NCBI GenBank assembly: GCA_965285935.1
Contig: OZ260665.1
Location: forward strand, 56,296,001 to 56,360,000
Length of the DNA: 64,000 bases
DNA from: Ophelia neglecta
Lineage: Eukaryota
Direction of reading: 5' to 3'
Shown in pieces: positions 600 through 26,764 of the stretch. Within the stretch, counting starts at the first letter, position 1. Every line of letters starts with the position of its first letter. The notes under the pieces were generated by a model. It saw nothing but the letters and a program-made list of their open reading frames with translations. It had not been told where the DNA came from and did not search any database. The translations under genes and the position numbers were made by a program.

Positions 600-746
600 A
601 TGGCCAAACTGTCTCTCCCGTCCAGGATGAAAACTCTTGTCTCGATAGATGTAGCGAGAGTTACTTTCCTGGCAAGCCCTGCTATTGCAATGACGCCTGC
701 GATCAGTACGAAAACTGTTGCTATGACTTCTACCAACAATGCAAAC
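600..746 (+). CDS. GPCR exon: somatomedin-B domain
   Basis: [36 protein letters not shown] has the 8-Cys SMB pattern; AG/GT boundaries, phase 1-1. Confidence 0.85.
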
Positions 747-24100: not shown

Positions 24101-26764
24101 TCCATTTTGACTATATTATCTAATTATGGAAAGGAAGGACAAAATATGCTTACAGTTTTTAAGCTCTATGTTCCAAAACCGGGGTTTTCGCTGGAGACGC
24201 AAGCAGTAAAACACACACTTGACTAGCCAGCCGCTTCTACCAGCCGCACAACCGCTACAACGCCTATGTTGTCCGTGCATGAAAGTGGCGCCATCTAGCG
24301 AATGGCTTTGTACTTACATGGATGTTTAAACGTTTAGTATAGGTCGGTAACAGTCATATTTTCTTAATCAATGTTCGCAAATGTCATATGATACAAATGA
24401 TAATAATATCAAAATAAAATAGATTTGATTTTAAATCAATTACCAACTTTCTTATAACCCAAGTATAGCACACGTATAAATTTAGGCATTAAAACTGCAA
24501 GGTTTCTTCGAAAACACGGACTAGGGTAAATGGCAAATGGTTCATGATTTTCAATTTGAAAGTACATGTACATTGACTTATAAATTTATTACATATTTGT
24601 TTTAGCGCATGCGCTCCAACTTTCGCTGTTAAATGATTTGAAATTACTAAACAGACTGATGAATATGTTCAGTAATCTCCTAGAAATATCTTAAAACAGA
24701 GCGTTGTTGATATTCCCGTTCTTCTATATATGTGTGGCTTCATTCGGTTTCTAGGGCATGGCAAATCCATTTACATATTCCGAATATTTATTTTAGACAT
24801 GATTTGCATACTACTTGAGCACAGTGATTTATGATCTCCTGAAAATAAATTCATACCCATTATAGGTGATTTTGGGTACACGGAAAACTTTTCAACAGGT
24901 TGAATCAAATTTCCGATCCACAGGATTATGGCTAGAGAAAGAAAAATGTCGTAATTAGCCTAAATGATAATATTTTGCTTAACGGTAACACCATGCTGCT
25001 CACTGTCACTTGTATTTCATCCTCAGGTGTCTGCTTGCCGTTTCAAATAAGCAACGAAAAATTATCTGGCTGGGAGTACTCCGTCTTCATCTTCTTGGTC
25101 ATAAATCTCATATCCTTCATCGTCATTTTTATCGGGTTGGTTTAGAAAATAGGAAGTGTCGATAAACCAATTTATAGGCTCATATTTGTATTATATGTTG
25201 TTAAATTTAAGGCACATGGCCATTTGCTTTGAAAGTGGTCAAAGACCATTCACAATATCACAATTAAGGTATATTATTAGTCTATAATGGACTAATAGGC
25301 TATTATATTTTAAATAAAGGTACGTGATCATTTTCCTTCGAGTCAAGTCCTCAATGAAGGAGATGGCGGAAAGATCGACTAACACTACAAACGAGTACAA
25401 ACTAGCCAAGAAACTTGCCTTAATCGTAGTAACAGATTTCATTTGTTGGGTGAGTTCCGTCAAATGACGTTGTTACGTTCGCTTATGTTATAGTGAAGTA
25501 GTTTTCTAAGGGAGAAAAGTTGGTATGCGAGTAGTCCTCACAACAATAGGCCTAATGTCAAATACTATAATCGATGCTGGTTTTCTTTTCTCTGTGATCA
25601 ATCGTATCCCCAACCCAACAAACACAAACATACTCTTTACAGTAGACTTCAAATTACGCTCCTTATGCTTTAATAGGGTGCGATCGGGATATTCGTTAAA
25701 TTTTTAATGGTCGCCCCCCTGTTCCTGTGGAACAGCTTTGGAATTAAACAAATAAGAAAGTAAAATAATAATCCCCACCGCCGCCTTCATATCATAAGTA
25801 AAACCCTAAGGACATAACGGAAAAGACTGTTGTACAGTCATTTGCTCTGAACGGCTTATGCTTCCTTAACCGATTATGTTTTGAGCTCCTTAAATTACTT
25901 TTTTATGTTTATCTTAACTTATCTTATATCTTTGGCTCCGTGTTTTCAGTTGCCAATAATTCTGATCGGTTTTGCCTCCCTTGCGGGTGCCCAAGTGTCA
26001 CCTCAGGTGTCCGCCTGGATCGCAGTCTTTATCCTACCCCTGAACTCGGCCGTCAACCCTCTTATCTACACGATATCCGCAATCGAGTGTGGGTAAGTAG
26101 TCTAAAAAATGCATGAGATATCTTCAATAGCCAACTGCTATTCGTATTTTTTATTATTATCTTCCTGGTCTTTTCATCTATAATTTATACGCAAACAGAA
26201 CTCGCCTTTTATTCCAGTTTGTTTTTAGGGCACTCTTTAAAGAATTTAAATTTAATTTGAAATATATATAAAGGATATTTTAAGTTTACGTTTTCTTCAT
26301 ATTCTTCTCCACTGTGAAACTTTTTAAACAGGTCTTTATCAAAATATTAATCGGAAAGATTCCAGCTCCGTTGAGGATTTTGGGTTTTAATGTCTAAAAG
26401 TTTAATATAGTTCCGTAGTTAATCAAACCTTTATTTGCATCTGCCTAAAAGAACACTTATAACATAAGGCTTATGTGATGGAGAATTAAGTTTAGATTAT
26501 TATTTCAGAAAGAAGCAAACCAAGCTAAGTAAGTCTTTTGGGAAGTCGACCCGACTCGACAACATGCCAGGGTCGGCTTTCACCAAAGCTGCGTTTATTA
26601 TATCACAACATCCTGTTACGGACGAAAGAGGAAAGACGGGCATTCACGTGACCGGGCAAGTTCGTGGGGCAGGTATGGTGGAGTCGCAAACGACGTATCG
26701 CAAACCGATTCTAAAACAGGCCAAAGACGACTGTTTGACAGCGCTAGCTGCGGGAAGGGATTGA
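600..26764 (+). CDS. GRL101-like (LGR type C / relaxin-receptor-like) GPCR with a greatly extended ectodomain; 5'-partial, 36 exons, >=~2,130 aa
   Basis: Phase-consistent exon chain: 600-746, 961-1182, 1505-1732, 2006-2128, 3307-3457, 7482-7628, 8133-8227, 8306-8485, 9384-9575, 9943-10136, 10314-10494, 10668-10823, 11854-12003, 12129-12269, 12704-12919, 13320-13423, 14878-14998, 15241-15431, 16822-16952, 17204-17445, 17640-17708, 17912-18274, 18687-18806, 19286-19393, 20328-20450, 20628-20747, 20918-20959 (optional), 21322-21543, 21761-21892, 22222-22323, 22499-23340, 23477-23669, 25027-25135, 25320-25449, 25950-26092, 26509-26764. The frame stays open throughout. LGR-C signatures: hinge FCC...[16 protein letters not shown]3 ITLDR, TM6 [13 protein letters not shown]7 [13 protein letters not shown]. 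No signal-peptide or start exon is visible in the window. Confidence 0.85.
961..1732 (+). CDS. GPCR exons: C-type lectin domain 1 (QPD-type)
   Basis: [26 protein letters not shown]...[18 protein letters not shown]...[18 protein letters not shown]...WRDYVC...GYICE. Confidence 0.9.
1383..1402. repeat. (GT)n microsatellite
   Basis: gtgtgt... run in GPCR intron. Confidence 0.9.
2006..2128 (+). CDS. GPCR exon: EGF-like domain (not in ORF track)
   Basis: [35 protein letters not shown], phase 1-1 exon. Confidence 0.9.
3307..14998 (+). CDS. GPCR exons: about five CUB or degenerate CUB domains
   Basis: [32 protein letters not shown] / [11 protein letters not shown] / [37 protein letters not shown]...[11 protein letters not shown]...GPFCG...[17 protein letters not shown]...WLLQGPEG. 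Some repeats are too divergent to count exactly. Confidence 0.75.
5420..5511. repeat. 46-bp tandem duplication (2 copies)
   Basis: gtgtaaaccattagtcttccg...tttggcaatatcaatt twice (5420-5465, 5466-5511), few mismatches. Confidence 0.9.
5700..6600 (-). mobile_element. Degraded CR1/L2-type LINE reverse-transcriptase remnant (may extend ~5100-7300)
   Basis: Minus strand encodes [19 protein letters not shown] (RT GVPQGS motif, ~6370-6435) and C-terminal ORF2-like [14 protein letters not shown]...[10 protein letters not shown]...[17 protein letters not shown], with stops and frameshifts. Confidence 0.8.
14713..16101. repeat. ~135-bp diverged direct repeat pair (14713-14849 and 15974-16101); second copy lies within a degraded element-like ORF region (~15440-16370, minus strand)
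   Basis: Shared core caagtatgagactgccgtgtgattgtctgagtgtag...ccatttagtgttcta..tgatgtgctcaaat; both copies translate on minus to [24 protein letters not shown]. Confidence 0.85.
15241..18274 (+). CDS. GPCR exons: C-type lectin domain 2 (with insertions) and a degenerate CTL-like domain
   Basis: [15 protein letters not shown]...[28 protein letters not shown]...[25 protein letters not shown]...WAKLPC...GVLCK; then [14 protein letters not shown]...GFVLCTK. Confidence 0.75.
18687..22323 (+). CDS. GPCR exons: LDL-receptor class A repeats (3 canonical, 1 degenerate, a Cys-rich spacer module, 2 more)
   Basis: [172 protein letters not shown]. Confidence 0.9.
21122..21164. repeat. (GA)n microsatellite
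   Basis: imperfect gagaga run. Confidence 0.9.
22499..26092 (+). CDS. GPCR exons: LRR domain (about 6 repeats), hinge and 7TM rhodopsin-type domain
   Basis: LxxLxLxxNxL repeats, LGR-C hinge, seven hydrophobic helices with DR, TDFxCWxP and NSAxNPxxY motifs. Confidence 0.93.
23846..24029. mobile_element. 184-bp foldback MITE
   Basis: Near-complete palindrome cacaggggttcgtatctgcaagtt...aacttgcagatacgaacccctgtg centred on aacgtt (~23933); flanks agtcctaa / agtcctag form an 8-bp TSD with one mismatch. Confidence 0.85.

Follow-up and report, generated by a model that had tools for sequence, protein, structure and literature searches.

Gene model and module order

The sequence considered here is a 64,000-nucleotide (nt) stretch of the Ophelia neglecta genome (contig OZ260665.1, positions 56,296,001 to 56,360,000), referred to throughout as the window and numbered from its first letter. 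Its forward strand carries, between 600 and 26,764, what is probably one gene for a leucine-rich repeat (LRR)-containing G protein-coupled receptor (LGR), in which somatomedin B (SMB), C-type lectin-like (CTL), EGF and CUB modules precede a string of LDLa repeats, a short LRR arc, a hinge and a rhodopsin-type seven-transmembrane domain (7TM). Judged by its sequence, the gene is a cousin of the GRL101 receptor of the snail Lymnaea and carries a core architecture that is old among bilaterian animals.

Exons were picked by hand from splice signals in window positions 1-27200 and then joined through their coordinates. The model comprises 34 exons, from 600 to a TGA at 26762-26764, and encodes a single open frame of 2,091 amino acids (aa) with no internal stops. 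All 34 acceptors are AG and 32 of the 33 donors are GT; the sole GC donor, that of the intron at 1183-1504, reaches 8.2 on a matrix derived from the donors of this gene, which themselves range from 2.5 to 11.0. Phase-1 introns account for 23 of the 33 (22 of 28 in the ectodomain, one of the final five), a share that fits modular exons; the phase pattern gives no date for their assembly. Because the exon at 600 begins at a phase-1 acceptor it is internal, and translation does not begin at its ATG. A signal-peptide exon probably lies about 2.8 kb upstream of the window (contig positions about 56293129-56293210). Sixteen stretches running from an ATG to a phase-1 donor were compared over 21 kb of upstream sequence, and this one, at L013:7129 or 7153 to 7210, is the most hydrophobic; it encodes 19-27 signal-peptide-like residues without homologue support. 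An earlier candidate, about 3.2 kb upstream, was dropped when its 'donor' proved to resemble an acceptor and the better candidate ranked first of the 16. Extra exons at 10918, 11489-11551 and 20918-20959 were likewise discarded, since the orthologues align without them; the last also falls where DNA contigs have repeat-like loose ends.

DNA contigs from three runs of one sample cover the locus, including its 4-kb intron, and the locus is therefore not an assembly join. Splice joints were absent from these same contigs, which as DNA data say nothing on expression. Between 8000 and 27000, 40 of 194 substitutions were listed, and five of these are exonic (exons make up 28% of the bases): two silent, three missense and no stops. 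No exonic indel occurs among the 12 listed of 24 in the same interval. At position 3460 the other allele alters the +3 site of the donor of the 4-kb intron, and two similar intronic copies of a short element lie at 14690-14850 and 15990-16110.

The order of modules is SMB-CTL-EGF-CUB-CUB-(CUB?)-CUB-CUB-CTL-CTL-LDLa x4-divergent LDLa-LDLa x2-LRR x5-hinge-7TM, with four or five CUBs and about 1,225 aa ahead of the first LDLa. Applied exon by exon, Pfam recognised SMB, CTL (two exons), EGF, CUB (six exons, three above the curated cut-off), LDLa (six exons), LRR and 7tm_1, while 15 of the 34 exons gave no match at E<=0.1. Profile comparison with family alignments (hhalign) added two divergent CUBs and a degenerate CTL, with the values given below, and returned only 25% for the third CUB-sized segment. 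In the list, P0002 and P0004 are the Lamellibrachia and Paralvinella proteins discussed in the next section.

600..746, + strand: SMB, internal exon 1 of the window, phase 1-1; PF01033 E 6.6e-9, 26/39 identical to Paralvinella P0004
961..1732, + strand: CTL1, exons 961-1182 and 1505-1732 around the GC-AG intron, motif QPD..E..WRD; Pfam Lectin_C, 72/144 identical to P0004
2006..2128, + strand: EGF exon; PF00008 E 1.9e-5, 22/37 identical to P0002 and 25/37 to P0004
3307..8227, + strand: CUB1, exons 3307-3457, 7482-7628 and 8133-8227; Pfam CUB positions 1-40, 43-83 and 83-110
8306..9575, + strand: CUB2, exons 8306-8485 and 9384-9575; Pfam CUB, 42/111 identical to P0002
9943..10494, + strand: CUB-sized segment of uncertain fold, exons 9943-10136 and 10314-10494; 34/123 identical to P0002, absent from the P0004 model, CUB profile 25%
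10668..12269, + strand: CUB4, divergent, exons 10668-10823, 11854-12003 and 12129-12269; hhalign CUB 98.6%, 70/146 identical to P0002
12704..14998, + strand: CUB5, divergent, exons 12704-12919, 13320-13423 and 14878-14998; hhalign CUB 94.7%, 63/143 identical to P0002
15241..17445, + strand: CTL2, the family-wide core lectin-like domain, exons 15241-15431, 16822-16952 and 17204-17445; Pfam Lectin_C, 102 bits with our own hidden Markov model (HMM), 105/176 identical to P0002
17912..18274, + strand: CTL3, degenerate C-type-lectin-like, single exon; hhalign CTL 94.6%
18687..20747, + strand: LDLa 1-4, exons 18687-18806, 19286-19393, 20328-20450 and 20628-20747; PF00057 on each exon
21322..21543, + strand: divergent LDLa-like module, C-x-Y-D...C-R-D-x-x-H-L..C, common to type C2 relatives; hhalign LDLa 86% over 20 columns
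21761..22323, + strand: final two LDLa, exons 21761-21892 and 22222-22323, abutting the LRR cap with no linker; Pfam, and alignment with RXFP1/2
22499..23340, + strand: LRR N-cap, five regular LRRs, short type-C hinge (FCC...C...[10 protein letters not shown]) and transmembrane helices TM1-TM3; Pfam LRR_8 and 7tm_1, LRR count
23477..26092, + strand: remainder of the rhodopsin-type 7TM, exons 23477-23669, 25027-25135, 25320-25449 and 25950-26092; 7tm_1, with DR in TM3, CLPF in the second extracellular loop (ECL2), CWLP in TM6 and NPLIY in TM7
26509..26764, + strand: last exon, cytoplasmic tail and TGA; frame open to the stop, poorly conserved and the least certain exon

A probable single gene with annelid orthologues

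The case for one gene comes from two annelid gene models. The Lamellibrachia protein (P0002; LSAT2_016795, 1,889 aa) aligns as a single segment from the EGF module to past TM7, at 44% identity over model residues 202-2020. The Paralvinella protein (P0004; KAK2157989.1, 1,768 aa) covers SMB to TM7 in three pieces, and Pfam finds SMB, CTL, EGF, CUB, LDLa, LRR and 7tm_1 on that one chain. Identity to these orthologues ranges from 22 to 68% across the ectodomain modules and reaches 188/278 and 187/278 in the 7TM; siboglinid and alvinellid worm proteins, at 50-56%, are the closest named relatives of the receptor core. One or both orthologues bridge 30 of the 33 junctions. The 4,024-nt intron between 3457 and 7482 interrupts CUB1 and is bridged by both, while 18274-18687 is crossed by P0002. 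In the same genome, two paralogues (L035 and L036) hold a CTL half, LDLa, LRR and 7TM within one unspliced frame. Because both annelid models hold the modules collinear with the 7TM on one chain, and so many junctions are bridged, the exons from SMB to 7TM very probably belong to a single gene.

Several observations weigh against this. Junctions 2, 9 and 11 failed the bridging test. At 2 and 11, which are flanked, the orthologue model carries insertions of 41 and 48 residues; at 9 the identities are too sparse. Both orthologues are gene predictions rather than shown transcripts, neither has a signal peptide, and the SMB-CTL cap is joined to a 7TM in P0004 only. The 41-residue insertion in the Paralvinella model stands where the window has its GC-AG intron inside CTL1, and may be a mis-called non-canonical donor.

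A first-pass annotation of this DNA had proposed one receptor gene of 36 mostly phase-1 modular exons and at least about 2,130 aa, with roughly 1,250 aa of modules ahead of the LDLa-LRR-7TM core, and had singled out the links at 3457-7482 and 18274-18687 for checking. Both links held, as did the single gene (the orthologue models being collinear), the one phase-compatible open frame, the predominance of phase 1 in the ectodomain and, at about 1,225 aa, the extent of the outer modules; two of the exons were not reproduced, and the protein is 2,091 aa.

Placement among the type C receptors

The tree was built on the hinge and 7TM of 58 rows, 43 of an initial 101 having been omitted as near-copies, partial or long-branch sequences, and types A and B were not included. 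The window gene forms a clade with sequences of Lamellibrachia, Ridgeia and Paralvinella (100/100), within a set that includes Lingula, Lineus and a paralogue from C5 of the same genome (99/97). Lymnaea GRL101 (P46023) sits on a branch of 14 sequences (95/98), which includes a gene on C12 of the Ophelia genome and not the window gene. Types C2 and C1 separate at 100/99, and both a quick tree of all 101 rows and a mixture-model quick tree recovered the same groups.

Domain organisation can be set beside the tree. As in type C LGRs generally, a rhodopsin-type 7TM follows LRRs and a short hinge, and LDLa repeats (six Pfam exons and one divergent) are N-terminal to the LRRs. GRL101 proper has about 12 LDLa straight after the signal peptide, whereas here seven LDLa-type modules stand behind about 1,225 aa of other modules; type C1 has a single LDLa and a linker before the LRRs, whereas here the last LDLa abuts the LRR cap. 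From tree and sequence together, the window gene is a type C2 LGR, and a cousin rather than an orthologue of Lymnaea GRL101. The base of type C2, however, did not resolve in the 58-row tree, and in an approximately unbiased (AU) test a sister relation between the window clade and canonical GRL101 was not rejected (p 0.10), which makes any order of gains and losses provisional.

Searches of the genome, whose counts are lower bounds, brought up further type C2 genes. The multi-exon LDLa-LRR-7TM gene that groups with Lymnaea GRL101 lies at C12:37.41-37.43 Mb (L022-L025) and is probably the true GRL101 of this genome. At C5:97.0-110.1 Mb (L010-L012) cluster 34 of the 130 matches, mostly as open frames of about 1,000 aa; the three genes examined are intron-poor LDLa-LRR-7TM receptors with a degenerate 7TM (no DRY, NPxxT). 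The cluster looks like the product of extensive tandem duplication of divergent type C2 receptor genes and recalls the GRL101 expansion of the apple snail. Four other intron-poor paralogues (L026-L027, L034, L035 and L036; C5:68.6, 90.2 and 92.4 Mb, and C8:24.9 Mb) have a long upstream frame ending in the first CTL half, with weak CUB matches in three of the four, followed by LDLa-LRR-7TM in one frame (two in L034). No second copy of, or donor gene for, the SMB, CTL1, CTL2 and divergent-LDLa exons was found in these searches.

An old core with changing caps

Homologues were assembled as 192 non-duplicate proteins with a near-complete 7TM, a set drawn in part from the best 150 of 44,812 matches to a Lamellibrachia paralogue (P0001) and biased towards relatives of the query; architectures were called with our own HMMs. 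CUB, CTL and at least four LDLa occur in this order in 30 of the 192, and CTL followed by LDLa in 51, while 25 have LDLa only, with at least nine repeats. Named holders of the CUB-CTL-LDLa core belong to Acanthaster, Amphiura, Antedon, Anneissia, Saccoglossus, Ptychodera, Glandiceps, Branchiostoma, Haliotis, Lingula and Dinothrombium, that is, from echinoderms, hemichordates, amphioxus, molluscs (abalone), a brachiopod and a mite, and 13 of the 30 exceed the window protein in length. A Nematostella protein carries a giant ectodomain on the same kind of 7TM, with its modules in a different order. The divergent LDLa, searched for as a pattern, was matched in 71 of 133 proteins with at least four LDLa; this module (C-x-D-x-x-H-L) stands two repeats ahead of the LRRs in the mosaic proteins and one ahead in the canonical ones. 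On the evidence of these sequences, the CUB-CTL-LDLa-LRR-7TM core is ancient and extends across bilaterians.

What lies outside the core is less constant. N-terminal caps among the relatives include F5/8, kringle, ApeC, SRCR, fn3 and MAM domains; SMB was found in none of the 20 long mosaic proteins scanned, and the window SMB was matched by P0004 only. The SMB-CTL-EGF cap is probably an annelid addition to an old core that bears other caps in other lineages. Searches with the ectodomain alone were insensitive, giving two matches in one case (P0004 not among them) and five in another (four of them EGF-repeat proteins).

The dataset of PMC11863921 gives the name GRL101 to two of six mosaic accessions looked up, those of Lingula and Saccoglossus. 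We found no description of CUB or lectin ectodomains on GRL101-type receptors in the literature covered, which included PMC4079206, PMC13403566 and PMC11521371 and left subscription journals mostly outside. The mosaic branch is nevertheless visible in databases, and the SMB-CTL-EGF-capped architecture itself is already deposited, uncharacterised, from Paralvinella.

A probably conserved switch and its possible ligands

The LRR-hinge-TM1-3 exon has RXFP1 as its best match in the PDB (7TMW, E 2.8e-37). In RXFP1 the ligand pocket is occupied by ECL2, which switches the receptor on; the LRRs together with I396/S397 of the hinge restrain it, and L402/L403 are needed for signalling (10.1101/2022.01.22.477343). 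In the window protein, F-S..L-M in the hinge ([10 protein letters not shown]) corresponds by spacing to I396/S397..L402/L403, and CLPF in ECL2 fits the C-hydrophobic-P-hydrophobic motif described in the same paper; the signalling motifs D-R in TM3 and NPLIY in TM7 are also present. Since these features are kept, the RXFP1-type hinge and ECL2 switch is likely to be intact. The predicted structure considered is that of the Lamellibrachia paralogue P0001 (AlphaFold, mean pLDDT 79.9); it matches TSHR, FSHR, LHCGR, LGR4 and RXFP1, and its LDLa part matches megalin. For P0004, the ESM Atlas gave nothing beyond GRL101-like leads scoring below 0.9.

Our preferred reading, to which we give an even chance, is by analogy with RXFP1: the gene would encode an orphan type C2 LGR of an old 'CUB-lectin-LDLa' branch, in which a large extracellular ligand held by the outer modules releases a built-in switch. 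The short LRR arc and hinge would keep ECL2 inactive, as in RXFP1. A large multivalent ligand, whether a secreted protein or lipoprotein complex, matrix or the surface of another cell, would bind the CUB, lectin-like, SMB and LDLa modules, mostly through protein-protein contacts. Because there is no RXFP-type linker and only five LRRs, the resulting pull would pass through the LDLa string, which is immediately next to the LRR cap. Signalling by large (lipo)protein complexes has been proposed for snail GRL101 (PMC2396169).

Against this reading stands the retention, in the third LRR (E-x-D), of one acidic pair like that of the relaxin site of RXFP1, so that a peptide ligand is possible. The receptor might then respond to an insulin-, IGF- or relaxin-like peptide, with the outer modules merely anchoring it or concentrating the hormone. 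The deorphanised type C LGRs named in PMC8286064 and PMC11863921 all bind insulin-family peptides, an IGF-receptor role for GRL101 has been proposed in this literature, and RXFP1 is the closest solved structure. Relaxin, however, contacts two acidic LRR pairs and the linker helix (10.64898/2026.06.10.731386, section 6), whereas here the second pair is missing, by inferred register, the linker is absent, and five regular LRRs compare with nine counted in eel RXFP1; about half of the LRR arc is missing. Moreover, the IGF proposal concerns the LDLa-only GRL101 (nine of 13 supplement rows go from the N-terminus straight to LDLa, and four are partial), and that type is separately present in this genome on C12. 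We therefore regard a peptide hormone as a rather unlikely ligand.

The lectin domains raise another prospect, a pattern-recognition receptor that senses microbes or symbionts by reading sugars. QPD/WND-type motifs signify calcium-dependent sugar binding, and the CTL1 motif, QPD..E..WRD, is near the galactose type. The core CTL retains a QPD/WxD-type motif in 17 of 51 relatives under a strict pattern, and ApeC, SRCR or F5/8 caps occur in other lineages. CTL1 also has weak PDB matches to CLEC4D/Mincle. In the annelids, on the other hand, the signature is partly lost. CTL2 has QPT and WAK where the calcium/sugar motif would be in the window protein, and reads QPT, QPS or QPV, without WxD, in all three annelid sequences (window, Lamellibrachia and Paralvinella). 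The CTL1 motif is complete only in the window gene, the Paralvinella domain keeping QPD and losing the later Glu and Asp. CTL3 is degenerate, without an EPN/QPD and WND-type motif; the equivalent segment of P0001 is predicted to form a compact alpha/beta fold (block pLDDT mostly 79-92). The gene also looks single-copy in the genome searches, unlike immune receptor families, which are typically expanded. From these sequences sugar recognition by the annelid members of the branch is doubtful, and a sugar-reading pattern-recognition receptor is improbable.

It is also conceivable that two genes, or a mainly secreted product, have been run together, the SMB-CTL-EGF-CUB exons being separate from a neighbouring, shorter CTL-LDLa-LRR-7TM receptor. 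The parts are joined through predicted models rather than transcripts, and several deposited relatives are short models that begin at CTL or later (P0001 and P0003). Yet nowhere is a stop or terminal exon needed, the phases fit at all 33 introns, P0002 and P0004 each carry N-terminal modules and 7TM on one chain, and 13 relatives with the CUB-CTL-LDLa core exceed 2,091 aa; we consider such a division very improbable. An adhesion-GPCR mode, with self-cleavage and the uncovering of a tethered Stachel peptide under mechanical tension, is largely excluded by the domain scans and has the slightest of chances, even though SMB, CTL, CUB and LDLa occur on amphioxus adhesion GPCRs (PMC2246102), since Pfam found no GPS/GAIN or SEA match on the 34 exons or the full-length orthologues, the 7TM matched 7tm_1 only, and the model of P0001 matches glycoprotein-hormone receptors and LGR4.

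These results revise part of what had been suggested about the origin and role of the receptor. Its identity as a type C LGR was borne out by the 7TM phylogeny that the first-pass annotation had called for, which also set the window clade apart from the GRL101 branch. The idea that GRL101 itself gained its ectodomain here was not supported, as the GRL101 clade holds the C12 gene and the CUB-CTL-LDLa core is bilaterian-wide and often part of longer proteins. The likeness to adhesion GPCRs extends to the module types but stops at the missing GAIN/GPS and the rhodopsin-type 7TM. Contact with matrix, microbes or cells is plausible in so far as it means large ligands, while lectin pattern recognition is weak; and the architecture, whose novelty had been left unverified, was not found described in the literature but occurs with the same Pfam set and order in the deposited Paralvinella model.

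Neighbouring sequences

Downstream of the receptor gene, a 202-aa open frame that starts hydrophobic and ends proline-rich (28755-29360, + strand) has no Pfam match, and a proteasome alpha subunit exon lies at 36024-36302 (- strand). Exons of a laminin-like gene extend over 39416-60964 (+ strand), with laminin EGF and domain IV matches on two of the four frames scanned, and a 397-aa open frame at 62305-63495 (- strand) has no Pfam match. About 35-50 kb upstream of the window (L016-L018, + strand), candidate DNA ligase I exons were recognised by eye.

Significance and comparison with known receptors

GRL101-type receptors are orphans and have usually been treated as one LDLa-LRR group; type C2 is collapsed in the tree of PMC11863921. 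Our comparison indicates that the label spans at least two designs within one genome, the 12-LDLa type, for which an IGF-receptor role has been proposed, and a mosaic type whose ectodomains span 1,000-2,500 residues, so that ligand hunts and chemosensory claims for 'GRL101' may conflate the two. A six-LDLa starfish GRL101 is enriched in sensory tentacles (PMC6267866) and GRL101 is expanded in apple-snail tentacles (PMC6573481). The ambulacrarian GRL101s in the supplement of PMC8286064, one per species and absent from our trees, are, on the basis of 13 of its 16 GRL101 matches, LDLa-only where the N-terminus is present.

More tentatively, type C2 may hide a second bilaterian subfamily: class A GPCRs with cap-swapping ectodomains as large as those of adhesion receptors, and without GAIN, in which contact with matrix, microbes or neighbouring cells would be sensed through leverage on the LRR/ECL2 switch. 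In that case the window gene would be a conserved annelid member of this subfamily and the tandem copies on C5 a sensory expansion of the same design. If it is true that large ligands trigger the mosaic type, this would be a second GPCR route to contact sensing, independent of adhesion GPCRs. The surprise is lessened by the fact that similar and larger proteins are already in RefSeq and annelid orthologues have been deposited.

The nearest comparisons are the Paralvinella (P0004) and Lamellibrachia (P0002) proteins, orthologues that share the module order and have a 7TM 67-68% identical to that of the window protein. P0004 is without about two CUB-sized segments and one LDLa, and P0002 starts at EGF and is without one LDLa. 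Of these three models, that of the window is the most complete. The mosaic 'GRL101-like' or 'uncharacterized' RefSeq proteins resemble the window protein in their CUB(n)-CTL-LDLa(4+1+2)-LRR-7TM core; they differ in their caps, and in many of them the lectin domain has retained the calcium motif that is missing from the core CTL of the annelids.

Lymnaea stagnalis GRL101 (P46023, type C2), likewise an orphan, also has a multi-LDLa string abutting the LRR cap, a short hinge and a divergent C-x-D-x-x-H-L LDLa near the LRRs, and its 7TM is about 51% identical to that of the window protein (P0021). It has 12 LDLa with nothing ahead of them. The window protein, with its LDLa arranged 4+1+2 and fewer LRRs, carries some 1,225 aa of additional modules and belongs to another clade. 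RXFP1 and RXFP2 (type C1) give the best solved-structure match, and their hinge and ECL2 switch residues are kept in the window protein; they differ in having one LDLa, a linker needed for signalling and a longer LRR arc, and they form a separate clade. Adhesion GPCRs have a similarly very long modular ectodomain, with SMB, CTL, CUB, EGF and LDLa among its module types. The window protein, however, has LRRs and a hinge in the place of GAIN/GPS, and its 7TM is of class A rather than secretin-like (7tm_2); with GAIN/GPS absent and the 7TM rhodopsin-type, it is therefore not an adhesion GPCR.

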